In this document: positions 4,606 through 29,445 of the stretch, one piece after another
Numbering within the stretch: position 1 is the first letter of the stretch
Layout: every line of letters starts with the position of its first letter
IMG/VR virus record: IMGVR_UViG_3300028888_000074
Coordinates: 32,001 to 96,000 of that record
Direction: 5' to 3' (one strand)
DNA: 64,000 bases
Origin: a virus
Taxonomy: Duplodnaviria; Caudoviricetes
Notes under the pieces: model-generated
Databases searched by the model: none
Seen by the model: the letters and a program-made list of their open reading frames with translations, nothing else
What the model was told of the DNA's origin: nothing
Program-made: the position numbers and the translations under genes

Positions 4606-6003
4606 TAGTTTCTAGCAAGAAGTCTCCCTCCTTTAGGCGGGGGTTGAATTGCTCTTTGTTATTTTATGGTTATTATACACTTTTTTTTGGAAAAACCAAA
4701 TACCTTTTGTAATACACCAAACTATTTATACATACATGTTAAAAGCGTTCAAATACAGACTGTTGCCAGATACCGAACAGGCCGAGTACATCAAACGTAC
4801 CATCGGCTCGGCCAGGTTTGTCTACAACTGGCTGTTGAATGACTACAAGGAACAGCTTGACATTTATAACCAGAATAACAAGCAAGGAAACAAACCAATA
4901 ATCAAGGAAGTCACTGAAGCCAAAAAGGACAATTATTTCCTGTCTGGCGTGGATTCATTGGCCTTGGCCAATGCCAAGCTCAACCTGAACACGGCATTGA
5001 GGAACTTCTTCGACTCACGGAATGGAAAAAGAAAGGGCAGGAAAATCGGGTTCCCGAAACCACACAAGAAAACGAAATGCAGATGGAGTTACACAACGAA
5101 CAACCAGGGAGGAAACATAAGGGTTGAAAACGGGCACATCTGTCTACCGAAAATAAAGTGGGTCAAACTAATACAGCACAGGGAACTGGAAGGAGTGATA
5201 CGAAGCGCAACCGTTTCCATGGAACGGAACGGCGATTTCTATGTCTCGGTTCTCTGCAACGTGGAACAAGCAAAGAAACAAAGACAAAAACCAGATACAA
5301 TCAAGGTCGTCGGCCTTGATATGTCATACACCGAATTCGTTGTCGATTCCGACACGTTGTCTGACGATACGAAACCCAAGTACGTCAGGCAATACAGGAG
5401 TAATGAGAAGAAACGGTCAAGGCTTAACCGAGCCATGTCAAGAAAGGCAATCGGTTCCAGGAACAGGGACAAAGCCAGAGTCAGGCTTGCAAAGCTTGAC
5501 AGGCACATTGCAAACTGCCGAACTGATTTCGCCCACAAGATGAGCAGGCACTATGCTGAGAACTATGACGTTATTGTAATAGAAGACATAGACATGCAGT
5601 CGCAAGCCAGGAAAAAGATGAGGGGACACGGAAAGTCAGCCAACGACTTGGGCTGGGGACAGTTCAAGTCTTACCTGAAATACAAATGCGAGATATATGG
5701 GTCGCTTTTTGTTGTTGCGGACAAATGGTTTGCAAGTTCGAAGACATGTAACCTTTGCGGAACGGTCAACCACGGATTGACGTTGTCCGACAGGGAGTGG
5801 ACATGTCCAGAATGCGGAGCAACACTACATCGTGACTACAATGCGGCATGTAACCTCAGGGACTGGTATTTTGAAAGATATAATACCGTAGGGACTACGG
5901 GAATTCACGCTTGTGGAGATTCAGCCGATACAGCAGGGGGAACCCTGCTGCAAGCTGGGTCGTTGAAACAAGAAGCACCTTCCTTCAGGGAGGGGTAGTT
6001 CAC
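4606..6003 (+). mobile_element. IS200/IS605-family tnpB-only element 1 (target motif probably TTAA)
   Basis: Left-end hairpin CTCCCTCC-ttta-GGCGGGGG at 4624; right end GAAG-hairpin-TAGTTCAC ending at 6003; left boundary uncertain by about 1 nt. Confidence 0.85.
4736..5998 (+). CDS. tnpB: RNA-guided endonuclease TnpB
   Basis: MLKAFKYRL HTH start; RuvC-I VGLD, RuvC-II VIED, Zn finger CNLC/CPEC, RuvC-III RDYNAA. Confidence 0.95.
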   Translation: MLKAFKYRLLPDTEQAEYIKRTIGSARFVYNWLLNDYKEQLDIYNQNNKQGNKPIIKEVTEAKKDNYFLSGVDSLALANAKLNLNTALRNFFDSRNGKRKGRKIGFPKPHKKTKCRWSYTTNNQGGNIRVENGHICLPKIKWVKLIQHRELEGVIRSATVSMERNGDFYVSVLCNVEQAKKQRQKPDTIKVVGLDMSYTEFVVDSDTLSDDTKPKYVRQYRSNEKKRSRLNRAMSRKAIGSRNRDKARVRLAKLDRHIANCRTDFAHKMSRHYAENYDVIVIEDIDMQSQARKKMRGHGKSANDLGWGQFKSYLKYKCEIYGSLFVVADKWFASSKTCNLCGTVNHGLTLSDREWTCPECGATLHRDYNAACNLRDWYFERYNTVGTTGIHACGDSADTAGGTLLQAGSLKQEAPSFREG

Positions 6004-6039
6004 ATTAACAATACTATTATACAATAATATTTTTTAATT

Positions 6040-7236
6040 TCAAACTTTTAATTTCAATTGCATTCTAGCCATGTTTATCTCTGTGGAATCACCCATATGC
6101 TTTCCAGCATCGTCAGAAATCTTGATGCAATTTTCCCAATCTGAATTTCTATCAAGACGGCACCCTTTTAATTTCATAACAATGTTAGCTGGACTCCAAG
6201 ATACACCCGTATCATTTGTTAAGTTAGTACCTATACCGAAACTTACATTACATCTACCTTTAAACTCATCATTAATACGTTTTGCCTTATCAAAGTCAAG
6301 AGAATTACTGAAAACAATAAGTTTTGATTTAGGGTCAATTCCGAACGACCTAATCTTATTCAATATCTTAATACCAACTTCAATTTCATCACCGCTATCC
6401 TGTCTGAACCCAGACAATAGATGAGCTTGTTTTTTAGTCAGTGTGTTGAGAAACGAATCTGTTGTATATGTATCAACTAATGCGGTTCCAAGGTCACCTT
6501 GATATACATCAATCCAATCTTCAAGACTGAGATAGTTTGCACGTTTATAACCAAATGTAGCTCCATGAAACATAACCCATTCGTGAGGGAACGTCCCAAT
6601 AGGCTTCATATTGTATTTCATAGCGAAGTAAACATTTGATGTTCCAGCACATGTTTTAGACTCACTCTTGATTTGTTTAATAACAAATTCCTGTACATCA
6701 GCACTATATCTTCTTCTTGTTCCAAATTCACTGAAAACGATATTGTTTTTATTTGCTAACATAAGTTTATCGTGTAGATTGTTACAAATAGTGAAGATAC
6801 TTGGTTCCTCATTTAATGATTCCTCTTTTAGTTTGTTTCTAATTTCAGAATAAATTGATAAAACCATAATTTCATAAAGCGTAACTTTATACAGTTTATC
6901 AATTGCCTTGCAATGAAATACATTGTCTTCATCAAACCAAAAATCCATTTTGTCAGGATTAAATCTAAATGTTGACAACCATTCCCAATATGTTGCTGGA
7001 ATATATGGAATATTTTTTATACACCAGCACATTTCATCATCAGTTAATGAAAGTTGCTTTACTTCATTGATTTGTTCATTAAACATTTCAATAAATTTAT
7101 CCTTCAATTCTGGTTCCCAAGACTCTTCACGTCTGTCGGTAAATTCAAATATACCCTGTGCATTCGGGTATAGTTTAAAATAAGCATAGCTTGTGCTAAA
7201 TTTATAAAGGTCTGTGTCTAAAATACTTTTAACCAT
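6040..7236 (-). CDS. pncB: nicotinate phosphoribosyltransferase
   Basis: SILDTDLYK, EFGTRRR, GTSNV, GTFPHEW, RQDSGD, FGIGTNL, NIVMK, KISD. Confidence 0.93.
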   Translation of the reverse strand: MVKSILDTDLYKFSTSYAYFKLYPNAQGIFEFTDRREESWEPELKDKFIEMFNEQINEVKQLSLTDDEMCWCIKNIPYIPATYWEWLSTFRFNPDKMDFWFDEDNVFHCKAIDKLYKVTLYEIMVLSIYSEIRNKLKEESLNEEPSIFTICNNLHDKLMLANKNNIVFSEFGTRRRYSADVQEFVIKQIKSESKTCAGTSNVYFAMKYNMKPIGTFPHEWVMFHGATFGYKRANYLSLEDWIDVYQGDLGTALVDTYTTDSFLNTLTKKQAHLLSGFRQDSGDEIEVGIKILNKIRSFGIDPKSKLIVFSNSLDFDKAKRINDEFKGRCNVSFGIGTNLTNDTGVSWSPANIVMKLKGCRLDRNSDWENCIKISDDAGKHMGDSTEINMARMQLKLKV

Positions 7237-7306
7237 TTTCTTATGAATTAAGTTTTAATAATCTAAGTCTTGCATGATTGTTTTTCAATTCATCAAAATC
7301 TTTTAC

Positions 7307-8694
7307 GATTAACGTGCAAGAAAGCCCACTGCTTTAGCTGTGGGATGAATTGCACTCTATTATAATATACATTTTTTTTGAAAAAACCAAAACTTTTTCA
7401 AAAAACACACTATTTATAAGTACATGATACAGTACAGGACATATACAATCAGGCTGTTTCCGAACATGGAGCAGGAACAGGAACTCAAAAACCTGTCCCT
7501 TGCAAGGAACATTTTGTATAACATGCTTGTCGGAATCGAACAGAAAACCTATGAGGAGACAAGGAAAATAAAAACCGAGTTCGACCTAGACAGGGATATC
7601 ACTGTATTGCGAAAAGAACACCCGTTCCTGACCAAACTCAACTCCAAGGCGAGCCAGAGAGTCGCCAAGGAGGTGTATTCAGCATACAAATCGTTCTTCA
7701 GCCTTGTCAAAAAGGACAAGACGGCGAAACCGCCTAAGCAAATGAAAGACGTGAATAGGTTCCATACAGTGGCATACAACCAGACTGGCTGGAAGTTTAT
7801 CAGCGAGAACACATTAAAGTTGAACGGTTTAATCGTGAACTACAAGGGAATCCCTGGCATGGATTACAAGTCCATGGCGGTTAAGGAAGTCAAACTGAAA
7901 CGTGTGAATGGAAAGTATCTGCTGGACTTGAGTGTGGCAAACAGTGTGGAGGAAAAACAAACAATAACCAATGAAAACAAGGTGCTTGCGATAGACCTCG
8001 GCCTAAAGAACCTTTGCAACGGCGTGGACAACCTCGGCTCTGTTGTAGTGTTACCAAACAAAGCCAGGAAAATAAACAGGTACTTCAGGAAACAGATATC
8101 GGCTGTACAGTCGAAGATGGACAGGTGCATCAAGGGCAGCAGCCGACACTGCAAGCTCAAAAAAACGAAAAGGAAACTCTATAACAGGAGGAATGCACAG
8201 ATAAAACAGACTCTGCATATCCAGAGTAAAAAACTGGTGGATATGAACTACAAGACGATTGTAGTTGGTGACTTGAGTGTGAAGAAGCTGATGGATAAGG
8301 GGAGCAACAAGCTGACCAAGACTTCCAGAAGCTTCGGCGAATCATCGATAGCCACATTCATGGAATACCTTGCATACAAGTGCCAGAACAGCAACACCGA
8401 GCTGGTGACAATCAACGAGATGTGGACAACACAGCAGAACTGTCTGACTGGCAAGCTGTTCAAGGAGAAGGTCGGACTGTCCGACAGGACTGTCATGCTT
8501 TCGGATTCCATAGAGATAGACCGTGATTTGAACGCCGCAATCAACATAATGAAGCGGTACGAGCAGAATCACCTTGCGCTGCTGACAGCGCCGCTGGATG
8601 TTTCCAGTGTGGTCAACAGGCACAACCTGTTGACAGATACGTGTTCTTGAAACAGGTCAAGAACCCCACGGTTTTAACCGTGTGAGTATGTCAG
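7307..8694 (+). mobile_element. IS200/IS605-family tnpB-only element 2 (target motif TTAC)
   Basis: TTAC|GATTAACGTGCAAGAAAG-hairpin(CCCACTGCTTTAGCTGTGGG); right end GAAC-hairpin-GAGTATGTCAG; removing it restores the pncA reading frame. Confidence 0.92.
7424..8650 (+). CDS. tnpB: TnpB with atypical RuvC-II and degenerate Zn finger
   Basis: LAIDLG, IVVGDL (no canonical Glu), INEMWTTQ, DRDLNAAIN. Confidence 0.9.
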   Translation: MIQYRTYTIRLFPNMEQEQELKNLSLARNILYNMLVGIEQKTYEETRKIKTEFDLDRDITVLRKEHPFLTKLNSKASQRVAKEVYSAYKSFFSLVKKDKTAKPPKQMKDVNRFHTVAYNQTGWKFISENTLKLNGLIVNYKGIPGMDYKSMAVKEVKLKRVNGKYLLDLSVANSVEEKQTITNENKVLAIDLGLKNLCNGVDNLGSVVVLPNKARKINRYFRKQISAVQSKMDRCIKGSSRHCKLKKTKRKLYNRRNAQIKQTLHIQSKKLVDMNYKTIVVGDLSVKKLMDKGSNKLTKTSRSFGESSIATFMEYLAYKCQNSNTELVTINEMWTTQQNCLTGKLFKEKVGLSDRTVMLSDSIEIDRDLNAAINIMKRYEQNHLALLTAPLDVSSVVNRHNLLTDTCS

Positions 8695-9225
8695 AATGTT
8701 TATTTGGCACGATTCCATAATATGTATAGCATGCTCATGGTTTTCTTGTGTGGTCCCAGCACAACATGGTTCAATTAAGTAGATTTCAGTTTCTGGAAAC
8801 ATACTTGACAATTGAAAAGCAGTGCTTACGACACAAATATCTGTACATACACCACAAATGAATATTTTATCGCTGCTAGCATCAAAATCCCAGAATTTAT
8901 CATAAAGTTGTTTCTGTCCAGGGGCGAATGAATATTTTTCAATAAAATCAACATTTGGTTGTGAATATAAACTGTCGTAAATAGGCTTCACCAACTTGTG
9001 CCCATTTGTGTTTTGTATACAATGTGGTACTGGCAAGTGTCTACCTTCTTTTGTTGTAGTGTACTTGTCATTGTGAGTGTCAAGAGTACATATCACTTTG
9101 TCAAAACAAAAATTTTCAAGCAAACTTACATTTTCATCAATAACTTTTTGAAAATCTGGAACAGAAAGACAACCACCAAGAAAGTCGTTCTGCATGTCAA
9201 CTAATACAAGATAATCTTTATTCAT
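8674..9225 (-). CDS. pncA: nicotinamidase / isochorismatase-family cysteine hydrolase; C-terminus altered by the IS insertion
   Basis: VDMQNDF, DTH, PHC, EK, GVCTDICV; directly upstream of pncB once the IS is removed. Confidence 0.88.
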   Translation of the reverse strand: MNKDYLVLVDMQNDFLGGCLSVPDFQKVIDENVSLLENFCFDKVICTLDTHNDKYTTTKEGRHLPVPHCIQNTNGHKLVKPIYDSLYSQPNVDFIEKYSFAPGQKQLYDKFWDFDASSDKIFICGVCTDICVVSTAFQLSSMFPETEIYLIEPCCAGTTQENHEHAIHIMESCQINILTYSHG

Positions 9226-9232
9226 AATAATT

Positions 9233-10210
9233 TTAATTTAAGTTTTCCATACTTAATAATGCGTTTCCGCAAGTAATTCTATCCTGGTCCTCTTCAAGTG
9301 AAGGGATGAACACAATAACTTCCCATCCTTCATCGAGCAAAGGTTGTTCAAATTGTCTATAAACATCGTATTTGTAATACCCTTCTGGTGTGTTGATTCC
9401 GTTTGCATTGGCTTCGTTAGTCTCATGAATGGGTGTTATCTTTACGATGAATTTTTCCTTGTCGAACAATCTTGTTAGTTCCTTCGGGTCAAGGATGGTT
9501 TTGTCGGTGACTGGGAAATTTAACGTGTACTTTCTTCCTTTTGGCATTGGAAGTGTTTTTGATATTTCAGAGATTTCCTCCAAAGACAATGACCGTCCTC
9601 TGAACAATTCATTTCTTTGCTTTTCATCTGTGCTGTTTATTGATAATTGTAAACCAGCTTCTCCATCATAGTCTTCGTTTTTGATTTTGCAGAATTCGTT
9701 AAGTATTTCACCCATTCTAACTAATCCAAGATTTTTTGGCATCATGGTTGTGAAAACTGGGTGAATTGTGTCCGCTTTCATTTTTTGATTTACCAAATTA
9801 TGCAAGTCGTATTTCAAGAAATCAAAAACATTTTTTGTATTTAATGACGGTTCCCCCATACGTGCAAGGTGAAGATTAAATCTCTTTGTATATTTGCATT
9901 TACTAAAGTCAATGGCGTTTGACACTTCTTCGTTTAATTCGTCACGAGAAACATTACCGCCAAATCTAACCTTGGGACAATCACAAAACATGCAATTCAT
10001 GGAACATCCCTTTTGGGTTGAAATAGTAACAACCATCTTGTCAGACAGGTCAACTTCGTGATGCGGAACGCTGTTAATCTCTTTCTTGTAGCCAAGAAAA
10101 TCTGCCTTGATGTTGTTCTCTTTTCCATAATCACCTACATATAGGTATTCCATTTTCTTTTCGGTGTCACAATAAATGGCACCAGTTCTTGTTTTAAATT
10201 CTTTAATCAT
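9233..10210 (-). CDS. radical SAM protein, RlmN/Cfr-like
   Basis: ISTQKGCSMNCMFC (CxxxCxxC), MGEP, SINS, C-terminal TCG. Confidence 0.85.
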   Translation of the reverse strand: MIKEFKTRTGAIYCDTEKKMEYLYVGDYGKENNIKADFLGYKKEINSVPHHEVDLSDKMVVTISTQKGCSMNCMFCDCPKVRFGGNVSRDELNEEVSNAIDFSKCKYTKRFNLHLARMGEPSLNTKNVFDFLKYDLHNLVNQKMKADTIHPVFTTMMPKNLGLVRMGEILNEFCKIKNEDYDGEAGLQLSINSTDEKQRNELFRGRSLSLEEISEISKTLPMPKGRKYTLNFPVTDKTILDPKELTRLFDKEKFIVKITPIHETNEANANGINTPEGYYKYDVYRQFEQPLLDEGWEVIVFIPSLEEDQDRITCGNALLSMENLN

Positions 10211-10213
10211 AAT

Positions 10214-10585
10214 TTATATTATATCAACTGAAATTATATTTAATTTTTCATTATCAAAATAAGTTCTTACACCAAATGTTGGATTAATGCCATAATTCAA
10301 CATTTCTTGTAATATCTTTCCGTTCGGAGTGTTTAAGACTTCAACTTCACAAGATATATTATCGTTATTCAATTTCAATGAATTAATATCAACTTGATGT
10401 GATGCTTCTGAAATTGAAGTGTGTAATGCATAATCAGAAGGATTCATTTGGCCATAAATTATACTTGAACCATTATTATTCTTTATGTAGTTATCTATGG
10501 CATTTTTTATCGACTTTTCATCATATTTTCTACCATTTGATTGGTCAACATCAAATAATATTACATTAACTGTTAATTTTTCCAT
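10214..10585 (-). CDS. prohead-protease-like protein (T4 gp21/S77-like), apparently degenerate
   Basis: NGRKY, YGQMNP, ASHQV, EVLNTPNGKILQEML..G; the expected SSRG Ser motif reads GVRT; start taken at MEKL. Confidence 0.6.
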   Translation of the reverse strand: MEKLTVNVILFDVDQSNGRKYDEKSIKNAIDNYIKNNNGSSIIYGQMNPSDYALHTSISEASHQVDINSLKLNNDNISCEVEVLNTPNGKILQEMLNYGINPTFGVRTYFDNEKLNIISVDII

Positions 10586-10841
10586 ATTGTTTTTCTCTTT
10601 GTTTGTTAATTTCTTTCCACCACTTTTCACTATATTGGTAGTCATAACTGTACAAACCTAAACCAACAAGTACTATAGTTGGAATAAGTATTGCTAATGC
10701 TATCCAAAATAATGGAGTGCAATAAGAATACAATTGAACCATTCCACAAATTAAGCACACGCCAAGAGCAATAAGTAAAATTGCGGTAAAAACGTTAGCT
10801 AATAATTCACAAATTCTTTCAATTTTAGTCATAAATCTCAA
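10566..10841 (-). CDS. small membrane protein
   Basis: Two hydrophobic segments. Confidence 0.65.
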   Translation of the reverse strand: MRFMTKIERICELLANVFTAILLIALGVCLICGMVQLYSYCTPLFWIALAILIPTIVLVGLGLYSYDYQYSEKWWKEINKQREKQYGKINS

Positions 10842-11736
10842 ATTTAAGTCCTGTTTTGTTTTGAATATAATCTTTAATTGTAATTTCTTTTAATAAGTCC
10901 AAATCGAATACTGGATATTCACCACGAAGTTCGTTACCATAACATACTAACGGATTGTGAGTCACGCATATTACAGTACCGTTGAATACCATACATAAAT
11001 TTCTCAGAAGGTGGTCAAACTTGAATAAGTTCTCAAGGTCAAGCCCCTCATCAATTTCATCGATAAGAATCAATGACGCTGAATCAGTAAGAAGTTTATA
11101 ATTTTTATGGTCTTCAAATGTGAAATTCAACACATTCTGCATTTTAGTGAACAAATTGCCAAGCATGTGTTGTGTTTTTTGTCCTTTTGAACTGTTTGTG
11201 GCATTTAATCCACCACCATTGATAAAGCCAAATGCTGTTGCAGCATTAATAAAGTTGCAAGGGTCATCCTCAATTGCGTCAAGAGAAAAAACGTGAGTGA
11301 ACTTATCATCAATTCCATCTATGGTAATTGGAGCGCCTTTCAACATTTGAATGTTTTGGCTTGTCATACCGTCAAGTTCTTTTTTGTTAATCTCAAACAA
11401 AGAATCTTTATTTGCTCTAATGGTTTGGAGGATTGTCGATTTTCCAGAACCGTTTGAACCGACAATGTAATTAACATCGCCAAGTCTTATTGGAATGTCG
11501 AACTCAGAATTATTGAAACAACGGAACCCACCGTCAACCTTTACATGAAACTTTGTGTTTATTGTTTGGATGATTTCATTCATCGTCATTAACAAATCAC
11601 ACCTTTTGGCTTCAATTATACCCAATTCTTTATCATCACGATTGTGACTGGCACAATACATATCTATTTCTAAACCTTTCAGATTTTCCGTAAGAGTTTT
11701 AAGGGTTTTTCTGTCTGTATAATAATTTCTCACCAT
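10825..11736 (-). CDS. ABC-type ATPase
   Basis: Walker A GSNGSGKST, signature SKGQ, Walker B LIDEID, THNP. Confidence 0.85.
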   Translation of the reverse strand: MVRNYYTDRKTLKTLTENLKGLEIDMYCASHNRDDKELGIIEAKRCDLLMTMNEIIQTINTKFHVKVDGGFRCFNNSEFDIPIRLGDVNYIVGSNGSGKSTILQTIRANKDSLFEINKKELDGMTSQNIQMLKGAPITIDGIDDKFTHVFSLDAIEDDPCNFINAATAFGFINGGGLNATNSSKGQKTQHMLGNLFTKMQNVLNFTFEDHKNYKLLTDSASLILIDEIDEGLDLENLFKFDHLLRNLCMVFNGTVICVTHNPLVCYGNELRGEYPVFDLDLLKEITIKDYIQNKTGLKFEIYD

Positions 11737-11774
11737 GTTAACTGTTTTTCATTATATTATTTTGATTTGTAAGA

Positions 11775-11836
11775 CTATGATACCAAAATTTTCAATCAAA
11801 AACAAATTTGGTTTTTAGAATTGTTAATTGTATAAT
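11775..11836. promoter_or_regulatory. divergent pair of sigma70-like phage promoters
   Basis: TTGGTT-N17-TATAAT on + (about 11808-11836) and a TTGTTT...TATCAT equivalent on -; the motif recurs before many operons. Confidence 0.7.
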
Positions 11837-11853
11837 CATAAAAAAATTAAATA

Positions 11854-12909
11854 ATGAATGATAAAGAAAAATTAGATTACCTTAACAAAGAACTTGGAAC
11901 CGATTACCAATCATTTGACAAGGTTGATTGGGCTTATGTCTCATATCAGTATAAACTATCCGAGGACTTCATCCGTGAGTTTCAAGATATAGTTGACTGG
12001 CCTCAAATTTCAGTATACCAGAAGCTGTCTGAGGACTTTATGCGTGAGTTTAAGTATAGGATTAATTGGTTTGCTGTGTCAATATACCAAAATCTGTCGG
12101 AAGGCTTCATGCGTGAGTTTAAGGATGAGTTTGATTGGTCTAACATTTCAATATATCAAAGACTTTCCGAGGGACTCATACGTGACTTTAAGGATGAGGT
12201 TAATTGGTCTAGAATTTCAAAATATCAGAAGCTATCGGAGGGTTTCATACGTGAATTTAAAGATAATATTGATTGGTATTTAATTTCAATAAATCAGAAG
12301 CTTTCAGAAGACTTCATTAGAGAGTTTCATGACAGAGTCAAATGGTCTAACATTTCAATATACCAGAAATTATCAGAGGACTTCATCCGCGAGTTCAAGG
12401 ACATGGTGAATTGGGGTTGTATTTCAAAATACCAGAAACTGTCAGAGAATTTCATCAGAGAGTTTAGTGACATGGTTGACTGGTCTCAAATTGCAGCGCA
12501 TCAGAAACTTTCTGATAGTTTTATTTGTGAGTTCGGTAATAAAATCAGCCAAAATTTGATAAATAACAACTGGGCATACAAGGACGCTGAGTTTTTGAAA
12601 GCACAAGTGGAGAAAACTGGCTTGTACGAATGCCACGACGATTACTTCATTGCGTATAAGGGAATCCGTTCGGACAGGTACTCAAAGTATAACTTCCAAT
12701 ACCAATACCTTCCTGTTGAGACATACGAATCGTTCTGTGACTGTTCGCCAAGCGAACACTCATTCGGCTTGTCCGTGTGGACAGAAGGAAAGGCGAAAGA
12801 ATATAGTGACGAGTTTGTCGTGAAGGTAAAAGTTAAATACGAAGATGTTGGCCGTGTCGTGCATGACGGAGGCAAGATAAGATGCAGGAGAATAACAATA
12901 CTTGATTAA
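11854..12909 (+). CDS. tryptophan-repeat protein (9 x 23 aa) with a C-terminal globular domain
   Basis: Repeat consensus VDWxxISxYQKLSEDFIREFKDx. Confidence 0.85.
   Translation: MNDKEKLDYLNKELGTDYQSFDKVDWAYVSYQYKLSEDFIREFQDIVDWPQISVYQKLSEDFMREFKYRINWFAVSIYQNLSEGFMREFKDEFDWSNISIYQRLSEGLIRDFKDEVNWSRISKYQKLSEGFIREFKDNIDWYLISINQKLSEDFIREFHDRVKWSNISIYQKLSEDFIREFKDMVNWGCISKYQKLSENFIREFSDMVDWSQIAAHQKLSDSFICEFGNKISQNLINNNWAYKDAEFLKAQVEKTGLYECHDDYFIAYKGIRSDRYSKYNFQYQYLPVETYESFCDCSPSEHSFGLSVWTEGKAKEYSDEFVVKVKVKYEDVGRVVHDGGKIRCRRITILD
11923..12543 (+). repeat. 69-bp degenerate coding tandem repeat, 9 units
   Basis: Counted from the translation. Confidence 0.85.
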
Positions 12910-13114: not shown

Positions 13115-13189
13115 CAATATTATACATTTTGAATTTAAATTTTTTATTTGTATAATCAATTTAGTTTGAAATTAAAAAAAATAAAAATT

Positions 13190-19116: not shown

Positions 19117-19596
19117 ATGATTGAAAATTTTGTATTTAATGACGTTGTTTTATATTCTAAGGGCTGGTATAGAAAGACTGATTTGGTTTCTGACCTTGGA
19201 TATATTTTCAGTAAAATTTATGGCTGGACACCTAAAACAGAAGAAGAAGTTGCAAGATTTATGCTGATTGCGATAGACCATCTATACACAGAACTGGAAA
19301 TACCGTTTGATTATAACTGTAACGGGAAATATAAAAATTCATTTGCATCGTTTAGCGACGAGATTAAAAAACGCATGAGATTATATGATGTGTCATATGA
19401 CATGGCCATTATACTTTTTTGTTTATCTATTTTCCAACAACTTGACAATACTCAAATAAAACTTAATCCACCTCATTTTGGGAAAAAAGAACATTTCAGA
19501 CTTGGTATAATGTTTGGAGAATATCCAATTTCACAAACTTATGCTGAAATGAACAGACGTGTAAATAATTTTTTTAATAGAAATAAGCATGACTAA
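19117..19596 (+). CDS. hypothetical protein
   Basis: 159-aa ORF. Confidence 0.7.
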   Translation: MIENFVFNDVVLYSKGWYRKTDLVSDLGYIFSKIYGWTPKTEEEVARFMLIAIDHLYTELEIPFDYNCNGKYKNSFASFSDEIKKRMRLYDVSYDMAIILFCLSIFQQLDNTQIKLNPPHFGKKEHFRLGIMFGEYPISQTYAEMNRRVNNFFNRNKHD

Positions 19597-21983: not shown

Positions 21984-22040
21984 TATTTATGTTAAAAGTT
22001 GAACAAACTTTAAAAATAATTTTAAAATTAAATTAAGAAT

Positions 22041-22619
22041 ATGAAAAAGATTTTTAATTTTTTTGCCATTGTTTTAATGGTGTTTGCTTTTGCTTCTTGT
22101 AATGGATGTAAGAGCGGTCAGGATGTGATTCCTCAAGACCAGGATGTTATTGTTGCTGGTTATGACTATGACAGCGTTGTTGTCGGGGATTACGACTATA
22201 TAGCTTCTCAATACAAGAGATTTTTGTTCTATGAGGTTGATGTTGTATTTGACACACTTCTTAATGCTGGAACCGATGTGAATATTGTCTCAATCGGTAC
22301 GGTGTTCCAGGTTGGTGACACATGTGTGATGATTTTCCATAACCCAGGAAAATGTGGTGAGAAACCAGAAATCATAAAAGAATGCGACCACTGGATGGAA
22401 TGCAGTGATATGACAGCAAGAAACCCGATTATGTACGATTCCTGCATGGCTTTGGCAAAACCTTACATGTGTAACATGCCGACAAGAAAGCTAACGTTTA
22501 GAAAACGTGTCGGCCCTCCGTTCCCGAAACATGGCGAATACATCTTCGGAAACGGATACCTGTTCATCGAGAGCCATACAGGTGAGATTACTGGTACAGC
22601 CGTACCTTGCAACAAATAA
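22041..22619 (+). CDS. putative lipoprotein
   Basis: MKK..FAFASC lipobox. Confidence 0.75.
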   Translation: MKKIFNFFAIVLMVFAFASCNGCKSGQDVIPQDQDVIVAGYDYDSVVVGDYDYIASQYKRFLFYEVDVVFDTLLNAGTDVNIVSIGTVFQVGDTCVMIFHNPGKCGEKPEIIKECDHWMECSDMTARNPIMYDSCMALAKPYMCNMPTRKLTFRKRVGPPFPKHGEYIFGNGYLFIESHTGEITGTAVPCNK

Positions 22620-22642
22620 CATTTGTTGGAAACAAAAAATCA

Positions 22643-22675
22643 AAAGCGCTTGGAATTTTTCTTAAGCGCTTTTTT
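22643..22675 (+). terminator. intrinsic terminator
   Basis: AAAAGCGCTT..AAGCGCTTTTTT. Confidence 0.75.
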
Positions 22676-22722
22676 GTTTTTTTCATTTTTAAAAAGTATA
22701 ATCAATAAAAAAACACTTAAAG

Positions 22723-24231
22723 GTCAACTACCCACGACTAAAGTCGTGGGCTTGTGGAGCAAAGGACAGAACCCTGTAACGGATTAAGCCTTTGACATGG
22801 CGCGTTGACAAGCGCTCTTACATCATCTTGGTACAACCAATTTGATTTACGTTCTTTGAAATACTTTTTTAGAATATTGACACTACCATTTATATCAGCG
22901 TTCAGCATACTGCCGTCGGAAGACATGTATAAGCCACGCTCTACCCTTATTCCTGAAAAGGTGTGTTTCTCTTCGGAAATTCCGTATGTCGGAATCGGGT
23001 CGTCGTCAAGCGAGCTCGCCTTTGATGTGTAGCTCTCCTCCTGGGGACAGTATGCTATGCCGTGCAGTTCACACTTGTATTTCAGTTTCTGGCGGAACTT
23101 ATGCAGCGGTATCATCACGGTGTTCTGGTTATTGACCTTACCAATGCTGATTTCCTGTTTCTGTTCCTTGTTGTAACCGACAACAAGTGTTGTCACACCG
23201 AACTCAAGGCATTTGTCCACGATAAGTTTGACCGACTTTCCGAAATAGTCGTCAATCCTGTGCGACCTTCCGTTCATCAGGCGAAGCATCTTTGGTGTGT
23301 TGGCCGACTTTACATGTTCGTTCTTGGCATATTCGCCCTTTAGCATTGCAACTTTCTTATTGTAATAGTGATTTATGCTTTTTAGTCTTCGCCCGTCAAT
23401 AAGGAACTGACGGGTTTCACCATTAGAAAAGATTGTGCAAGCGGCAAGGTTGTCAACACCAAGGTCTATGGACATGTAACCGTCACCTTCAGCCTGTCTG
23501 AGTTGGTTTCCTGCCTCGTAAATAAATTCTATTGAGAACTGCCGACCGTTGTACTGCGGGATTATACGGATTTCCTTGAATTCAGTTACATTTCTGAGAT
23601 TCTTCGGAATGGTGAGCAGGATTCTCCTGTCGTCAATCCCGTACTTTTCGCGGAATTCCTTGGTGAGTCCGATAGCGACAGTCCCGTTCTTTTGGATACG
23701 ACAGCTTCTCCCCTGAATGGTACAGATTGCCAGACCTTCGGAATCCTTATAACGGGGAAGTCTCACCTGTTCGGAATACCTGCCTGACTTTTTCAGTGCA
23801 AGCAGTTTGAAGAACGACTGCATGTCCCTGTCGACAAGTCTGAGAATCTGTTGCGCACAGTCGGAGAGAAGTATGTGGTAGTTCTCATTGTCCTTGCATT
23901 CGTTATAGTTTGCATAGTAGGACAGGTAGGATTGTGTGTTGAAATAGTGCTGGCGCACGGAATACAGGCCGACATTGTACATCCTTGCGGAATGGTAACA
24001 GAGGTTTCTGAGGATGGACAAGTCCACCTCGTGTTTCTGTTTGGTCTGAAGTATTTTCGTTGTCAGGTACATTTCCGTGTGTTGTATATATAAATAGTAG
24101 GTTATTTCAAAAAAGTTTATAATATATTATATTTATAAAAAAAAAAATAAGAATAATAATAAAAAAAAAGAAAAGGCTAGCCTGCAATTCCTCCCACCAC
24201 TAAAGTAGTGGGTTTCCTTGCAGGAGTTATC
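22723..24231 (-). mobile_element. IS200/IS605-family tnpB-only element 3 (target motif TCAT)
   Basis: On the - strand: TTCAT|GATAACTCCTGCAAGGAAA-hairpin(CCCACTACTTTAGTGGTGGG); right end CAAG-CCCACGACTTTAGTCGTGGG-TAGTTGAC. Confidence 0.9.
22738..24072 (-). CDS. tnpB: TnpB (IS1341-like), atypical RuvC-II, no Zn finger
   Basis: MSIDLG, LVVGYN, QEESYTSK, NADINGSVNI. Confidence 0.92.
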   Translation of the reverse strand: MYLTTKILQTKQKHEVDLSILRNLCYHSARMYNVGLYSVRQHYFNTQSYLSYYANYNECKDNENYHILLSDCAQQILRLVDRDMQSFFKLLALKKSGRYSEQVRLPRYKDSEGLAICTIQGRSCRIQKNGTVAIGLTKEFREKYGIDDRRILLTIPKNLRNVTEFKEIRIIPQYNGRQFSIEFIYEAGNQLRQAEGDGYMSIDLGVDNLAACTIFSNGETRQFLIDGRRLKSINHYYNKKVAMLKGEYAKNEHVKSANTPKMLRLMNGRSHRIDDYFGKSVKLIVDKCLEFGVTTLVVGYNKEQKQEISIGKVNNQNTVMIPLHKFRQKLKYKCELHGIAYCPQEESYTSKASSLDDDPIPTYGISEEKHTFSGIRVERGLYMSSDGSMLNADINGSVNILKKYFKERKSNWLYQDDVRALVNAPCQRLNPLQGSVLCSTSPRL

Positions 24232-24660
24232 ATGAAACATATTGCTTTTAATAATTTTTCCCATATCACTTTCAAGTACAGAACTGAAAACGATACAATA
24301 AAAAGGATTAAGAAGGGCGAACACTATTGCCAACATCCTTTCTTGGAAGCTATAATAGAAGAGGATTACGATTCAAAATTTGGTACGGTACGCTATTTTA
24401 ATAACTGGAGTAGCACTGCACAAGAAGACAGATGGTATAGCGGAAACGCTTATTTCAAGACTATAGAAGAAGTTGTTAAAGACTGGAATGACCACGTCTT
24501 TTATGCCGAACAAGAAGACATATGGTATAATAAACCATGGATTGAAATAACATTGCTTGACGGGTCGAAACGGATATCATTTCTTAACAATGATGAAGAG
24601 CTTGAAAATGAACTCGCTTTATATGGGAAACTAAAATTTTGTACACATGTCAACGAATAA
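24232..24660 (+). CDS. hypothetical protein
   Basis: Start MKHIAF sits exactly at the IS left junction. Confidence 0.7.
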   Translation: MKHIAFNNFSHITFKYRTENDTIKRIKKGEHYCQHPFLEAIIEEDYDSKFGTVRYFNNWSSTAQEDRWYSGNAYFKTIEEVVKDWNDHVFYAEQEDIWYNKPWIEITLLDGSKRISFLNNDEELENELALYGKLKFCTHVNE

Positions 24661-24666
24661 CGTGTT

Positions 24667-25254
24667 TCACATTTTGTTTTTTTTCAATATCTTAATATCG
24701 TTATCATCGAATATAACATAATTGGTGACATTTTGCTTGAAATTCTTGTCGAACCATTTTATTCCGACATAACCGATTGACTTAAGGAACTTTGAAGTTT
24801 CCTTATCGCTTCCACACAAGGACGCAATTGTTCCATAAATATCACCTCCGTCTTCACATTCCAGAATATACCTGCATTCATATTGCCAAAAATCGCGTTT
24901 AGCCTCTTGGCTTGCATATGCCTCTCTGCCATATTCACTTTCGGTTGTGTAATATTTGAAAAAGAGGTTTGCAATACGCCTCTTTTCCTGTTGGCTTATA
25001 GACTTGTAGGAAAGATATTTTCCATCTGGAACCTCAACCGTATACACAATACCATTACCAGCATATTGTTTGGCTGCTTCAATTGAATTTGTGAAATAAT
25101 GTCCATATCCGTACATTTGTTCTCCCCATCCAGTGGACAAATATTTTGAGTCAAACTTGTCGAAATCGGCGTTACTTAACGAACCATGATATAACTCAAG
25201 TTCATTGATAACTTCGGTAACCATTTTCCTTACATCGTTTTGATTGAATTCCAT
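24667..25254 (-). CDS. putative ADP-ribosyltransferase-fold (ART-PolyVal-like) protein with an N-terminal shared peptide
   Basis: LYHGS..FDKFD..STG.G..YGYGHYFT..A..YA, GYVGI, NYVIFD..DIKI. Confidence 0.65.
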   Translation of the reverse strand: MEFNQNDVRKMVTEVINELELYHGSLSNADFDKFDSKYLSTGWGEQMYGYGHYFTNSIEAAKQYAGNGIVYTVEVPDGKYLSYKSISQQEKRRIANLFFKYYTTESEYGREAYASQEAKRDFWQYECRYILECEDGGDIYGTIASLCGSDKETSKFLKSIGYVGIKWFDKNFKQNVTNYVIFDDNDIKILKKNKM

Positions 25255-25324
25255 TTAAGATTTTTTTTTATAAATAGTTGTGTTTTCCCGATTAAAAATG
25301 TATAATAACAAAAAAAGAAATATT

Positions 25325-25927
25325 ATGAGTACAAGTAGAAGTTTTAGATTAACGGATGAATTGGTTGAAAAATACAAACCTTACACACCGTCAAGTGAAG
25401 AAACCAACGACAATTTCATAAACCAGATTGAAATTGAAATCCTAGTCAAGTGTATGTCAGACAACAACGATTGTGACGTAAAGGAGATTTTCAATTACAT
25501 AAAAGGAAGACTATGGATGTACAGGGCGTGTGTTGAACATGCAGCAGAATATGATATCTATCGTTGGTACAAAGAAGATGAGGATAATATACTCACCATA
25601 TATGGTTATCATGAACAGTATTGTGGCCATGAAATAGATGATGAAACAAATGACATTGTTGAGGAACTTGTATTAACCGCAAAACTTGTCAATGCTGGAG
25701 ATTATTTTGACAGTGAATCACACTTCTTCGATTTGAAAAATGAAATCAAAGACAAACTTGATTATATCAGAGGAGTTTATTTTGACAACAAATTGACTGA
25801 TATTATGGATGAATTCAAGAAGTATGAATTGACTGATGATGATTTTAATGAATATGGTGAATTGAAAGAAACAAAAAACAAAATCGACGCTGAGGATGGT
25901 GGCGTTTTGTTTGATTCTTTGGACTAA
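25325..25927 (+). CDS. acidic hypothetical protein
   Basis: Follows promoter TTGTGT-N17-TATAAT. Confidence 0.7.
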   Translation: MSTSRSFRLTDELVEKYKPYTPSSEETNDNFINQIEIEILVKCMSDNNDCDVKEIFNYIKGRLWMYRACVEHAAEYDIYRWYKEDEDNILTIYGYHEQYCGHEIDDETNDIVEELVLTAKLVNAGDYFDSESHFFDLKNEIKDKLDYIRGVYFDNKLTDIMDEFKKYELTDDDFNEYGELKETKNKIDAEDGGVLFDSLD

Positions 25928-25980
25928 CAAACTATTTATTGAAAATAAAATAATTGATTTAGATTAAAATTGTTTTCAAA

Positions 25981-26376
25981 ATGAAGAAAGTATTAAACGA
26001 GGAAGGACTTAAAGAAATGGTCAAAACAATGGTTTTGCAAACCTTGGAAGAATCATACATAATGAACAAAATACAGGACAGGCGTTCAACACAAGCAAAT
26101 AACCAAATGAAACTGAAAAGTCTCCGAGAATTGCTTTTGAGCGTCGGAATTGATAAAATAACCGAAAAAAACGTGCATGGTGATGTCGGATATATGTTCA
26201 CTATTCCGATGGACAAGGCTGTTTCTGCGGCAAAACAACTTAAGAGTGAAGGAGTGGCGTTTAAAACATTAAGACAAGACGGCCATTATCAGGATGGTGA
26301 AATTTGGGATGCCACAATGTTCGCTTATTTTGGAAGATACCAAATGATGGAAGGTGAAATTAAAAAAACCAAATAA
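25981..26376 (+). CDS. hypothetical protein with shared N-terminal peptide
   Basis: LNEEGLKEMVKTMVLQTLEE; CTATTTAT upstream. Confidence 0.7.
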   Translation: MKKVLNEEGLKEMVKTMVLQTLEESYIMNKIQDRRSTQANNQMKLKSLRELLLSVGIDKITEKNVHGDVGYMFTIPMDKAVSAAKQLKSEGVAFKTLRQDGHYQDGEIWDATMFAYFGRYQMMEGEIKKTK

Positions 26377-26928
26377 ATGGAAGAAATTCGGAAAAAGATT
26401 AAAAATCAATACAAATCATCAGTTGAAAGTTATATTGTGACTTTCAAAAACTGTTATTTTAAAAATGTGGAATGCGAAGATTATTGGGTTGGAGAAGAAA
26501 TCGGTGGTGTGTTTTTTATCAATGATTTCTTCTTTGATTTCAACGATATACGATATGCAATTGACAACCAGGTGTTAGGTACGGAATTGTTTGCTTGGTA
26601 TGATTATGTTGTCAATATTGGAACCAACAACAGCGAAACACAGACTCCAACATTGAAGGAATGGTGGGAATCTAAAAATGATAACGACAAGAGATTGAAA
26701 TACGAATTGTCGCTTTATCGGAAAAACATAATGGATTTCAAAAAAGAAAACCTTGTATTGACAAATGACTCCCCAACGGAAGATGGCTATTACGTAGTTC
26801 TTTATCTTGGTTTTGACGGCGTGTTTCAACGGACAAACCAATGGAAAAACGGAAAGTGGTCAAGTCCGATTCGTGACAAACTGATTGCCAGGAGCGCAGA
26901 CCCGATAAAACTTAAAACGCTTGTTTAA
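26377..26928 (+). CDS. hypothetical phage protein
   Basis: YWVGEEIGGV..DIRYAID..WYDY. Confidence 0.7.
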   Translation: MEEIRKKIKNQYKSSVESYIVTFKNCYFKNVECEDYWVGEEIGGVFFINDFFFDFNDIRYAIDNQVLGTELFAWYDYVVNIGTNNSETQTPTLKEWWESKNDNDKRLKYELSLYRKNIMDFKKENLVLTNDSPTEDGYYVVLYLGFDGVFQRTNQWKNGKWSSPIRDKLIARSADPIKLKTLV

Positions 26929-27035
26929 CCAAAAACATAACGAAATTAACGGATTGTTGAATAAAACCACAATCCGTTTTTTCTTGTATCATTGAAACTA
27001 TTTATTATGAAATAAACATTAAAGATTTTAATATT

Positions 27036-28052
27036 ATGTATGAAGAATATAATACAGTTTTTTTGTACGGAGATGTGACATATAAAACAAGTGGAGGAGA
27101 TATAAAAATGGCAAAATCAATAACTTGGGATGAGAATTATATTGGTGAGTATGAGGAAGGTAGCTATAATTATGAAGCTGTTGGACTTTGTGGTATAACA
27201 TCTGGTATTACAAATAAAGAATCCATTATACCATATAACAGAGTTTTAACTTTGTTTCCAATTTTCTCAAGTGCAACATATGATTCAGTAACCAAGGGTT
27301 TGACGTTGAAAACAGGTGATGTGGATATTAAAATAAACACGCCAAAGATGACAGGCGTGAATGATTCAAGTGGTGGTGGAAATGGAGGACCAAAAGCTGG
27401 AGTTTCGAGTTTTGATTACTTAGGTTTATCATTTGATTATATATTCTGGAAAAGTCATTTCGGTGATTATTTCTTTAACGCACAAATTCCGCCGACAATG
27501 CATAATATCAGACATATTTTGAGAATATATGGATTGGATGAGAAATATGGTGGTAGTAATAATGAAACTTATCTATATGATGATGTTGTGTATGACACAA
27601 CACAAAATACATGCGTTTTAATTGACTCTTCGAATATCAATAGTGCAAACATACGTCCAGCTGTCATCAATGTTGATTGTAATTTGGCGTCAGATTTTAG
27701 GTTTACTCAAGAGTCTGATGGCTCTTACACAAGTTCTAAATATGACTGTTTCGTAAATATAAAACCAATTAATGATGACATGGTTCAAGTTAAAATTGCC
27801 ACTGTCAACTCCTCTTATTCATCTGAAGAAAATTTTATTATATATGACCAGTTAAATGATGGAAATGAAGGTGGTAGTAATACGAGAACATTACAAATTT
27901 ACGATGGTTATTATAATACTGATGGTCTTTATACAATATTTGCAACCGTACCACCATATATGCACAATATATTGCATATGATGAAAATGTGTGGCTGGTA
28001 TGGAAGTTACAGTGTAGGAGGTGGAGGAGGAGGAGAAGAGATAGCAGTGTAA
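27036..28052 (+). CDS. putative virion/structural protein with an internal two-fold repeat
   Basis: LYGDV../PPTMHNIRH and LYDDV../PPYMHNILH; Gly linkers; CTATTTAT upstream. Confidence 0.65.
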   Translation: MYEEYNTVFLYGDVTYKTSGGDIKMAKSITWDENYIGEYEEGSYNYEAVGLCGITSGITNKESIIPYNRVLTLFPIFSSATYDSVTKGLTLKTGDVDIKINTPKMTGVNDSSGGGNGGPKAGVSSFDYLGLSFDYIFWKSHFGDYFFNAQIPPTMHNIRHILRIYGLDEKYGGSNNETYLYDDVVYDTTQNTCVLIDSSNINSANIRPAVINVDCNLASDFRFTQESDGSYTSSKYDCFVNIKPINDDMVQVKIATVNSSYSSEENFIIYDQLNDGNEGGSNTRTLQIYDGYYNTDGLYTIFATVPPYMHNILHMMKMCGWYGSYSVGGGGGGEEIAV

Positions 28053-28054
28053 AT

Positions 28055-28084
28055 AAATGGCGGAACCAATGATTCCGCCATTTA
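28055..28084. terminator. bidirectional intrinsic terminator
   Basis: AAATGGCGGAA-ccaatga-TTCCGCCATTT. Confidence 0.8.
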
Positions 28085-28142
28085 TTTTAGTTATATCCAC
28101 CTATAAATTCTCTGACTGATATTCCATTATCATCCGTTTTAT

Positions 28143-29445
28143 GATTTACACTGGAGAAAACCAACGACTTCAGTCGTTGGATGAATCCAGTTATTTAATT
28201 ATACATTTTTAAAATTAAAAAAGCAAAAAAAAAAACAATGCCCGTGGTGCTTTTTACACATAACGGACTATTTATTGTTATAAACATAACAATAAAATGC
28301 TGACATACAAGTACAAGCTATACGCATCCAAAAGAAACAAACGCATCGAAACCCTGATGCGTGAGGCTTGCTTTGTATGGAACCATTGCGTTGCCCTTCA
28401 GAAGAAGTACTATGAAATGTACGGCAAGTACATAGGCGGAAACAGGATGAAGACACACTTCGCAAAGAGGTACAAGATGCAGAACCTTCACTCTCAAAGC
28501 GTGCAGGAGGTGATTGAACGCCTCGACTGTGCATACCAGAGGTTCTTCGCCCACAAGTCCAAGAGACCTCCGAAATTCAAGAAGTTCTCGGATATGTCAT
28601 CCGTGGTTTTCAAACAGGGAGGGTTCAAACTGAAAGGCAACAAATTCACGATAAACAAACTGAAAACAACATTCAAGTTCTCTTTGAGCCGTCCGCTCAG
28701 GGGAGAGACAAAGAGGTTGTCGGTCAAGCGGTCACCGCTTGGAGACTACTACATCTGTGTGGTCACCGACGCCGAAGCCAAAAGATACGGAAAGACACAC
28801 AATGGTGCATCCGTTGGCATTGACTTCGGTCTGAAAACCTATCTCACACTATCAGACGGACAGGCGGTCGAGAACCCGCAGTTCCTTAAACACAACCTCG
28901 CATCATTGAGAAAGGCATCCAGAAAATTTAGCAACGCAAAGCGTGGCTCGAACAACAGAAGACGGAAACGCATGGACCTTGACAGATGCCATGAAAAGGT
29001 TGTGAATTCACGCACCGACTGGCAGTGGAAACTTGCCCATGCGATATGCCGCTCATATGACAACATATTCGTCGAGGACCTTGTCCTTACTGGTATGTCG
29101 AAGAGGTGGGGAAGGAAAATGAACGACCTGGCACACGGAAGGTTCGTGGAAATCCTCGGAATGGTTGCGTCGAAATACGGATGCAACCTGCACAAGATTG
29201 ACAGGTTCTATCCGTCAAGCAAAACTTGCGAGTGCGGGTTTGTCAATGAGAACCTGTCACTGAAGGACAGGGAGTGGGTCTGCCCGCATTGCGGAAGGAC
29301 AAACGACAGGGACTTGAATGCTGCAAGAAATATACTTCGTCGGGGCATCGACGAATTGGCGAGTGCAAATGCTGCTGGCGTCAACGCCATCAGCGTGCAT
29401 GTTTAAGTCAAGAATCCCACGAATTTATTCGTGGGAGTATGTCAA
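28143..29445 (+). mobile_element. IS200/IS605-family tnpB-only element 4 (target motif TTAT)
   Basis: TTTAT|GATTTACACTGGAGAAAA-CCAACGACTTCAGTCGTTGG; IS608-like right end GAAT-CCCACGAATTTATTCGTGGG-AGTATGTCAA; removing it restores a reading frame. Confidence 0.92.
28297..29406 (+). CDS. tnpB: compact RNA-guided endonuclease TnpB (369 aa)
   Basis: VGIDFG, FVEDL, PSSKTCECG, CPHCG, DRDLNAARN. Confidence 0.95.
   Translation: MLTYKYKLYASKRNKRIETLMREACFVWNHCVALQKKYYEMYGKYIGGNRMKTHFAKRYKMQNLHSQSVQEVIERLDCAYQRFFAHKSKRPPKFKKFSDMSSVVFKQGGFKLKGNKFTINKLKTTFKFSLSRPLRGETKRLSVKRSPLGDYYICVVTDAEAKRYGKTHNGASVGIDFGLKTYLTLSDGQAVENPQFLKHNLASLRKASRKFSNAKRGSNNRRRKRMDLDRCHEKVVNSRTDWQWKLAHAICRSYDNIFVEDLVLTGMSKRWGRKMNDLAHGRFVEILGMVASKYGCNLHKIDRFYPSSKTCECGFVNENLSLKDREWVCPHCGRTNDRDLNAARNILRRGIDELASANAAGVNAISVHV

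Follow-up and report, generated by a model that had tools for sequence, protein, structure and literature searches.

Four divergent TnpB elements in a phage genome carry promoter-like motifs that match native phage classes

Introduction

Cas12 descends from TnpB, whose natural role is being actively studied. Promoters located near the ends of insertion sequences, as in IS1, IS2 and IS10 (pOUT), read into neighbouring genes and can drive them. Genes for TnpB are frequent in phages (PMC12607003) and have been annotated in crAss-like phages (PMC11054128). Bacteria and plasmids are the settings in which TnpB-driven homing has been demonstrated (PMC10055086, PMC10690162); its extension to co-infecting phages is so far a theoretical proposal only, termed 'non-restorative homing' (PMC13565253). 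In a literature search, no paper was found that describes phage-matched promoter cassettes in IS605 elements. Here, four TnpB elements of the IS200/IS605 type (T1 to T4) are described from a window of 64,000 nucleotides (nt), bases 32001-96000 of the 115,947-nt IMG/VR virus record IMGVR_UViG_3300028888_000074. Between the left-end hairpin and tnpB they carry two promoter-like motifs facing in opposite directions, and both motifs match classes found before native genes of the phage. The reading preferred here, to which a probability of about 0.6 is given, is that these are tnpB-only IS200/IS605 lineages with a heritable two-way, phage-matched promoter cassette and that they are adapted to phage genomes. 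This reading is drawn from sequence comparison throughout.

The completeness of the record was estimated by CheckV at ~32%, and its nearest kin are jumbo-phage contigs of 340-410 kb. The nearest of these is G001, a contig of 361,445 nt rated complete, which shares synteny with the record and shows 70-92% protein identity around the nicotinamide adenine dinucleotide (NAD)-salvage genes. G006, also a complete jumbo phage, was used as the second comparison lineage. Megablast of 20 kb against GenBank phages gave no match. The host is probably a member of the Bacteroidota, as suggested by the kinship with G001 and the jumbo phages, by the lack of enrichment of Shine-Dalgarno motifs before genes, and by the relatives of the TnpBs found in Bacteroidales phages and metagenome-assembled genomes (MAGs).

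Results

Layout and insertion of the TnpB elements

Pfam OrfB_IS605 and Cas12f1-like_TNB domains are present in four open reading frames (ORFs) of the window. An earlier note on this DNA had described four very divergent TnpBs with one shared layout, and both parts hold: pairwise identity among the four proteins is 21-28%, and the same order of features is seen in the aligned upstream regions. Two further copies of family 4, T5 and T6, lie in the record beyond the window; they are 95-97% identical to T4 in protein and have the same left-end cassette. In the alignment the order common to all six copies is an IS608-like hairpin, TATACA with a T-run, CTTTTT-N10-12-CTATTTAT, and tnpB. The octamer CTATTTAT ends 6, 6, 17 and 21 nt before the ATG in T1 to T4, as had been noted, and the outward motif is clear in T1, T2 and T4 and weak in T3, again as described (Table 1). 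Six elements in 116 kb of this record compare with one in the complete G001.

The elements have the features of the TnpB-bearing IS200/IS605 family, namely a split-RuvC TnpB, subterminal hairpins and, at T1 and T2, insertion 3' of a short motif with no duplication. The positions of T1 and T2 are unoccupied in G001; no target duplication is seen, and the left flanks end TTTTA or CTTTT. Empty sites were also sought at T3-T6, where synteny with G001 is broken. The sole G001 element is a 95%-identical relative of T2 at another locus. The T2 ends, 7305 and 8694, could be fixed by means of copies located elsewhere (in G001 and at locus L050) together with the G001 empty site. A right-end hairpin and a conserved tail are present in the elements, and we take the hairpins of both ends to resemble those of IS608. 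DNA-fold z-scores are -2.2 to -5.1 at five of the eight ends and -1.9 at the right end of T2; both T1 hairpins can be seen, yet they fold no better than shuffles. Rfam and tRNA scans of the window returned nothing, and with no Rfam family at threshold there is no catalogued omega-RNA.

The absence of tnpA from the window, pointed out earlier, extends to the 116-kb record, and no Y1_Tnp was found in the complete G001 either. As the elements contain no Y1 TnpA, they are regarded as non-autonomous, tnpB-only derivatives. With 68% of the genome missing from this record, tnpA may simply lie in the part not covered. Autonomous tnpA-tnpB relatives of T1 occur in phage-like contigs, and G006 has seven TnpB matches, one with a Y1 tnpA beside it.

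The forward motif precedes native structural genes

The motif CTATTTAT occurs 26 times in the record (both strands), and 21 of the 26 copies lie in the sense orientation within 80 nt upstream of crude gene starts. It is the top enriched 8-mer before gene starts in the record (13-fold). The earlier note had allowed that the octamer might be no commoner there than chance in such AT-rich DNA, and this enrichment rules that out. In the two relatives it is the second-ranked 8-mer, again ~13-fold enriched, with 42 of 66 copies before gene starts in G001 and 23 of 36 in G006. It is found before ~9% of native genes and before six of six tnpB genes. Alignment of 58 native sites showed conservation of the octamer and of an A at position -1 only; a -35 element is lacking, and the ATG follows at a median distance of ~22 nt. 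From its sequence and distribution, CTATTTAT is a real phage promoter-like motif.

In G001 the genes behind CTATTTAT include portal, tail-sheath, tail-fibre and adaptor-like genes, in keeping with the earlier statement that the motif precedes structural genes. PHROG annotation of the CTATTTAT-driven genes of this record was uninformative, so the assignment of the motif to late genes rests on G001.

Two other origins of the motif were considered and rejected. Native CTATTTAT sites are not transposon left-end remnants: the left-end hairpin signature lies within 160 nt upstream at 6 of 26 copies here and 1 of 66 in G001, all of these are TnpB elements, and no native site has the signature. Nor is CTATTTAT part of the target motif, its place being internal to the element, after the hairpin and ahead of tnpB.

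Also in G001, CTATTTAT stands upstream of a gene, located among structural genes, for a 634-amino-acid (aa) protein whose C-terminal domain is HNH homing-endonuclease-like (locus L076:17359-19263(+)).

The outward motif and the orientation of the elements

The outward sites of T1, T2 and T4-T6 have the form TTTGG/TTTGC...TGTATA(A/T)T; that of T6 ends AGTATAAT, and the weaker T5 and T6 sites start TTGTTT. The first 10 nt of the T1 site are identical to those of native sites at window position 11807 and at G001 354948. Local shuffles give 0.6 occurrences of the pattern TTTG-N18-20-TGTATAAT for the record and 0.8 for G001, whereas 5 and 7 are found; four of the five sites in the record are native and stand before genes. 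Sigma-70-family proteins are encoded by phages of this group, one in this record at 19198-19386 and two in G001.

In five of the six copies, T4 being the exception, the start of a co-oriented phage gene lies 80-130 nt past the outward site (~95-115 nt in T5 and T6). The note had placed all four window elements antisense to the transcript that they interrupt. This stands for T1, T2 and T3, which, like T5, are antisense to both flanks; T4, located between convergent genes past a terminator, does not interrupt any transcript. Most tnpB-only relatives in the phage contexts examined are likewise antisense to both flanks (L045, L089-L099, L197-L201; G006 38044, 264789 and 293190), and copies with tnpA (L046, L047) are co-oriented with theirs. 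With antisense placement the outward promoter-like site points along the interrupted operon. An IS608-type insertion bias would predict co-orientation with leading-strand genes; replication-strand bias of this kind was therefore dropped as a cause of the antisense pattern.

Just past the NAPRTase gene, at 6016-6043(-), is a native promoter-like site close to consensus, TTGAAA-N16-TATAAT with TTGTATAAT, that reads into the T1 right end. Since it now reads into T1, the element seems to have split this site from ORF 4240-4590. The interposition of T1, together with its own outward site 82 nt from that ORF, fits the idea that the outward motif counters polarity, though it is not proof of it. Nine terminator-like hairpins were located in the same region (4000-9500), and all but one of them lie antisense to its two tnpB genes.

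Native back-to-back modules and promoter classes

The back-to-back arrangement had been compared with native divergent pairs at two places. The first, at 32696-32733, is clear; the second, at 45875-45914, is weaker, its reverse -10 being AATAAT. In G006 a conserved bidirectional module of ~45 nt, TATTTTTCAAAC-NN-CCAAATATTTATTAAAAAAATATT, occurs at least seven times, nearly always between divergent genes (loci L180-L196; e.g. 4873, 28698, 53005, 119448 and 215862), and by its sequence resembles an independent, repeated promoter cassette. Six of seven G006 CCAA-ATATTTAT modules stand between divergent genes, and their reverse strands are full TTTG-N20-TAnnTTTG promoters. With the native pairs of this record, these modules suggest that a compact bidirectional early/late module is native to the clade, and the element cassette appears to imitate it, with a longer spacer.

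Another class, sigma-54-like TGGCAY-N5-TTGCW, stands before genes at 16 of 20 sites here and 10 of 15 in G001 (13-14-fold), and is almost missing from G006. Related jumbo phages thus differ in their early promoter systems yet share CTATTTAT. Three promoter classes of this uncultured clade are thereby defined: sigma-54-like; TTTGG...TGTATAAT or TAnnTTTG; and CTATTTAT.

Comparison of relatives in phages and bacteria

Viral-contig scans with single proteins gave just one or two very close relatives, and family alignments reached further. The exact DNA pattern of hairpin plus CTATTTAT, which is too strict, gave one additional viral locus. The order hairpin, TATACA with T-run, TATTTAT and tnpB is kept in relatives of T1 (72% and 53% identity), in a T2-like copy and in 12 of 12 relatives of T3 (at least 62% identity), all of them on other phage contigs. 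In these T3 relatives TATTTAT lies ~17-30 nt before the ATG. As the order recurs in other phage contigs, this phage is not where the cassette was put together, and the cassette is heritable in each element family.

Such conservation across family members in many unrelated contigs would also be expected if the cassette were simply the ancestral promoter region of the insertion sequence, read by host RNA polymerase, with its likeness to phage motifs due to a shared host grammar and not to phage adaptation. We regard this alternative as unlikely. It agrees with the outward half of most relatives, which is the canonical Bacteroidota host-type promoter TTTG-N19-20-TAnnTTTG, and with the presence of TATTTATA also before tnpA in autonomous copies of the T1 family. 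The forward half does not follow it: CTATTTAT differs from the known Bacteroidota -7 motif, and in three jumbo phages it marks a gene set apart from the TAnnTTTG, TGTATAAT and sigma-54-like classes. Among 38 bacterial relatives of family 3, none has TATTTAT within 120 nt upstream, and CTATTTAT is missing from all 38. It is missing as well from relatives of T4 (52-57% identity) in the small Bacteroidales phages, Parabacteroides phage PF672P2 and csAssE-Sib, which have TAtcTTTG or TAtaTTTG before tnpB. The earlier note had asked whether both motifs are phage-specific; in most relatives the outward half is not, being of host type.

The distribution of the lineages also argues against an ancestral host promoter region, as they are nearly absent from bacteria. 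Among 185,579 species genomes a single relative of T3 above 50% identity was found (81%, on an Alloprevotella MAG contig), the next best being 46%. A neighbouring gene on that contig matches phage-only PHROGs, and its cassette has the TAnnTTTG/TATTTATA form. The top 120 homologues of T1 include none from an NCBI genome, and all the contexts examined look phage-like.

Finally, both halves change with the resident phage. TTTG-N19-21-TAnnTTTG has 62 sites in G006 against 7.0 in shuffles, 35 of them upstream of genes, and no TGTATAAT-type site was found in G006; before gene starts of this record and G001, TAnnTTTG is not enriched. Correspondingly, three G006 elements have an outward TTTG-N19-20-TAnnTTTG, which in two of them (one being the copy before gene 37751) matches the extended native consensus, and the elements of this record have the TGTATAAT type. 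For the forward half, ATATTTAT is enriched 7.5-fold in G006 and only ~3-fold in this record and G001; the G006 elements carry ATATTTAT, and every element of this record and of G001 carries CTATTTAT. The enrichment statistics, the G001 empty sites, the covariation in G006 and the lack of the motif in bacterial relatives together support, at the level of sequence, phage-resident lineages whose two promoter motifs match native phage classes. The residency proposed in the earlier note is in line with this, the elements being nearly confined to phage-like contigs.

Observations that weigh against phage adaptation

A number of observations count against the preferred reading of a two-way, phage-matched cassette. 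The covariation compares two phage lineages, within each of which the elements are not independent, and in a relative at locus L091 the element has GATATTTATC though its flanks hold CTATTTAT. The 6-nt gap between CTATTTAT and the ATG in T1 and T2 is shorter than at almost any native site (usually at least 14 nt), and would give a leaderless or nearly leaderless mRNA, unlike native genes. Gene calls throughout are crude longest-ORF calls. On the outward side, the TGTATAAT class is small, with four native sites here and seven in G001, and the spacing in T1 is 1 nt below the native range. The T4 site faces nothing useful, and that of T3 is poor, with no convincing promoter. By E. coli standards the outward -35 is weak. 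In a generic sigma-70 scan of the region 13 sites were found where 15.8 were expected, i.e., no excess; the outward sites are not flagged by such a scan since TTGGTT matches TTGACA at three of six positions.

The lack of sigma-70 excess and the missing outward site of T3 would also agree with a scheme in which the forward promoter alone is real. The TATACA/T-run/AACCAA block would then be part of a bipartite forward promoter, or a left end recognised by the transposase, and the outward site a by-product that arises when this block is read from the opposite strand. Under this scheme one would expect what is seen in T2, T3 and native G006 sites, whose forward strands share TTTTT(G/C)AAA-N7-(C/A)TATTTAT; at native sites there is no gap between AACCAA and the motif, and T2 resembles a tandem repeat of the upstream half. 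The scheme does not account for the divergent setting of six of the seven G006 modules, where the full reverse promoters lie 20-40 nt before a minus-strand gene. It also leaves unexplained why TATACA (TGTATA on the other strand) is retained, always at the same distance from TTTGG, across families T1, T2 and T4 and in many relatives, and why a co-oriented gene starts just downstream in five of six copies. We therefore consider it improbable.

Catalytic residues, element ends and neighbouring genes

T2 and T3 TnpBs lack all four zinc-finger cysteines; they retain the D...D pair of the RuvC domain, and a conserved glutamate is kept just before (Y/W)T(S/T)(K/Q) (Table 1). We take this arrangement to resemble the described 'rearranged' catalytic site, and it may be one.

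The loss of the canonical RuvC-II glutamate and zinc finger from these two proteins, the intact reading frames of all copies behind a phage promoter motif, and the commonness of phage-encoded TnpB/Cas12-like systems (PMC12607003) could be explained if the TnpBs were domesticated phage genes with native promoters, serving as RNA-guided weapons against competitors or the host or as nuclease-dead regulators. Domesticated genes would hardly be expected to keep both hairpin-bearing transposon ends intact, as these do. Close relatives hold copies at other loci while the orthologous sites are empty, three T4 copies of 95-97% identity lie at different loci of one record, a Y1 tnpA is present in G006, and the alternative glutamate before (Y/W)T(S/T)(K/Q) is invariant in T2 and T3. 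Domestication is accordingly considered very improbable.

The right-end tails (5955-6003, 8646-8694, 22723-22775(-) and 29397-29445) fall in two pairs: T2 and T4 end GAGTATGTCA(G/A), and T1 and T3 end GGTAGTT(C/G)AC. By protein, T1 is nearest to T4. As the tails pair the families differently from the proteins, element ends and nuclease genes may have been shuffled.

T2 sits inside the 3' tail of a pncA-like (isochorismatase) gene. Comparison with the uninterrupted G001 gene shows that the ORF now ends with 7 codons contributed by the element right end (8674-8694), and that the original ~21 C-terminal codons are left as an orphan remnant across T2 (7240-7304).

On its opposite strand the T3 left end (24221-24234) reads AGGAG, located 7 nt ahead of the start codon of the neighbouring phage gene (ATG at 24232). 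T3 may thus supply a ribosome-binding-like sequence to this gene, in a phage without general Shine-Dalgarno use.

Table 1. Positions of the TnpB elements, their cassette motifs and native promoter-like sites (window coordinates unless marked as record)
Feature	Position	Strand	Remarks
Element 1 (T1), tnpB-only IS200/IS605-type	4605..6003	+	between NAPRTase gene and ORF 4240-4590; G001 empty site; hairpins at both ends
T1 left-end two-tier hairpin, IS608-like	4614..4653	+	TTTA loop; from alignment of six left ends and fold
T1 outward promoter-like site, TTTGGTTTTT-N-TGTATAAT	4672..4700	-	faces ORF 4240-4590, ~82 nt downstream
CTATTTAT before T1 tnpB	4722..4729	+	ends 6 nt from ATG
T1 tnpB, 420 aa	4736..5998	+	RuvC D195/E283/D367 and CxxC...CxxC zinc finger intact
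Element 2 (T2)	7305..8694	+	in 3' tail of pncA-like gene, upstream of NAPRTase gene
T2 outward promoter-like site, TTTTGGTTTTTT-N-TGTATATT	7364..7392	-	faces NAPRTase gene (start 7236)
CTATTTAT before T2 tnpB	7410..7417	+	ends 6 nt from ATG
T2 tnpB, 408 aa	7424..8650	+	without canonical RuvC-II Glu and zinc-finger cysteines; Glu just before WTTQQ
Native promoter-like site, TTTGGTTTTT-N-TTGTATAAT	11807..11836	+	17-18 nt before ORF 11854-12909
Element 3 (T3)	22723..24231	-	antisense between ORFs 22041-22619(+) and 24232-24660(+); left end touches start codon of the second ORF
T3 tnpB, 444 aa	22738..24072	-	D203, D393 and E345/E346 in QEESYTSK invariant in family; no zinc finger
CTATTTAT before T3 tnpB	24090..24097	-	ends 17 nt from ATG; TTTTTGAAA-N7 upstream
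Element 4 (T4)	28143..29445	+	between convergent genes, past terminator of ORF 27036-28052
T4 outward promoter-like site, TTTGCTTTTTT-N-TGTATAAT	28198..28227	-	faces 3' end of convergent gene
CTATTTAT before T4 tnpB	28268..28275	+	ends 21 nt from ATG
T4 tnpB, 369 aa	28297..29406	+	D-E-D triad and zinc finger intact
Native back-to-back pair, clear	32696..32733	both	minus TTGGTTTT...TGTACAAT abutting plus CTATTTAT, between divergent genes
Second native pair, weaker	45875..45914	both	CTATTTAT at 45907(+); reverse -10 is AATAAT
T5 (family 4, outside window)	record 30481-31590	-	
T6 (family 4, outside window)	record 115518-end (115518-115946)	+	

Discussion

The preferred reading can be put as a sequence of steps. 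Four deeply diverged, non-autonomous lineages would circulate in a clade of gut/rumen jumbo phages of 340-410 kb. The forward half of the cassette, (C/A)TATTTAT, would be the -10-only motif that the clade uses before structural genes, and would drive tnpB and the 3' guide RNA together with the late genes. The reverse half would take the form of the early or host-type promoters of the resident phage and read across the left end into the phage gene that follows. In elements lying antisense in an operon, the outward promoter is co-oriented with the operon and would restore downstream expression, making the insertion nearly neutral. Within a phage the elements would spread by Y1 TnpA acting in trans, encoded either by an autonomous copy, such as G006 has, or in the portion of the genome that the record does not represent. 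Between co-infecting phages they would spread by TnpB cutting empty sites, followed by recombinational repair. What we infer here from the motifs and their placement comprises promoter activity, late timing, anti-polarity and homing; the late programme of tnpB would follow from the motif being shared with portal, sheath and fibre genes in G001.

A wider version is put forward tentatively, as a proposal with slightly less than even chances. A guild of tnpB-only transposons would have co-evolved with a clade of Bacteroidota jumbo phages, both cassette halves tracking the early-type and late-type consensus of the phage, and would be a counterpart to the free-standing homing endonuclease genes of T4. 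This would amount to operon-neutral, RNA-guided homing with late expression, which may in addition seed divergent promoter modules.

The locus and its relatives provide a concrete, testable case of transposon lineages living in phage genomes. The elements appear to have their nuclease expressed through the transcription programme of the phage, and the outward promoter appears to be the price of their position in the operon. If true, this would explain why TnpB is common in large phages, and would constitute a new route by which mobile elements lower their cost to the host genome. It would also offer natural promoter cassettes and pairs of transposon-associated motif (TAM) and guide for work on Bacteroidota phages.

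Comparison with known systems

The closest described systems are IS200/IS605 elements with omega-RNA (ISDra2, IS608 and Geobacillus ISGst; Karvelis 2021; Meers 2023, PMC10055086; IS1341-type and PATE-like elements). The present elements have in common with them the RuvC-fold TnpB, the subterminal hairpins, insertion 3' of a short T-rich motif without duplication, dependence on TnpA in trans and the expected cleavage of empty sites. They differ in the conserved two-way cassette between the left-end hairpin and tnpB, which tracks the resident phage, and in that the lineages are nearly confined to phage genomes and lie almost always antisense in phage operons.

The forward motif resembles the late promoters of the T4 gp55 type in being a single AT-rich octamer, with no -35, before structural genes. 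As CTATTTAT differs from TATAAATA, the likeness is one of analogy and not of membership. The outward motif recalls the end-proximal promoters of IS1, IS2 and IS10 (pOUT). These are generally known for accidental activation of silent host genes or for antisense RNA, whereas here the outward site follows a phage consensus and stands back to back with a late-type promoter, as in native divergent modules.

In the lifestyle proposed, the elements come near to the free-standing homing endonucleases of T4-like phages (seg, mob; Edgell 2010, PMC2988022, as cited in PMC13565253). These too are selfish nuclease genes between conserved phage genes. The use of phage middle or late promoters and the spread by cutting the empty allele of co-infecting kin, described for seg and mob, would have their parallel here. 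Unlike seg and mob, the nuclease of the present elements is RNA-guided, and the elements have true transposon ends, lie antisense to the operon and carry their own outward promoter-like site.

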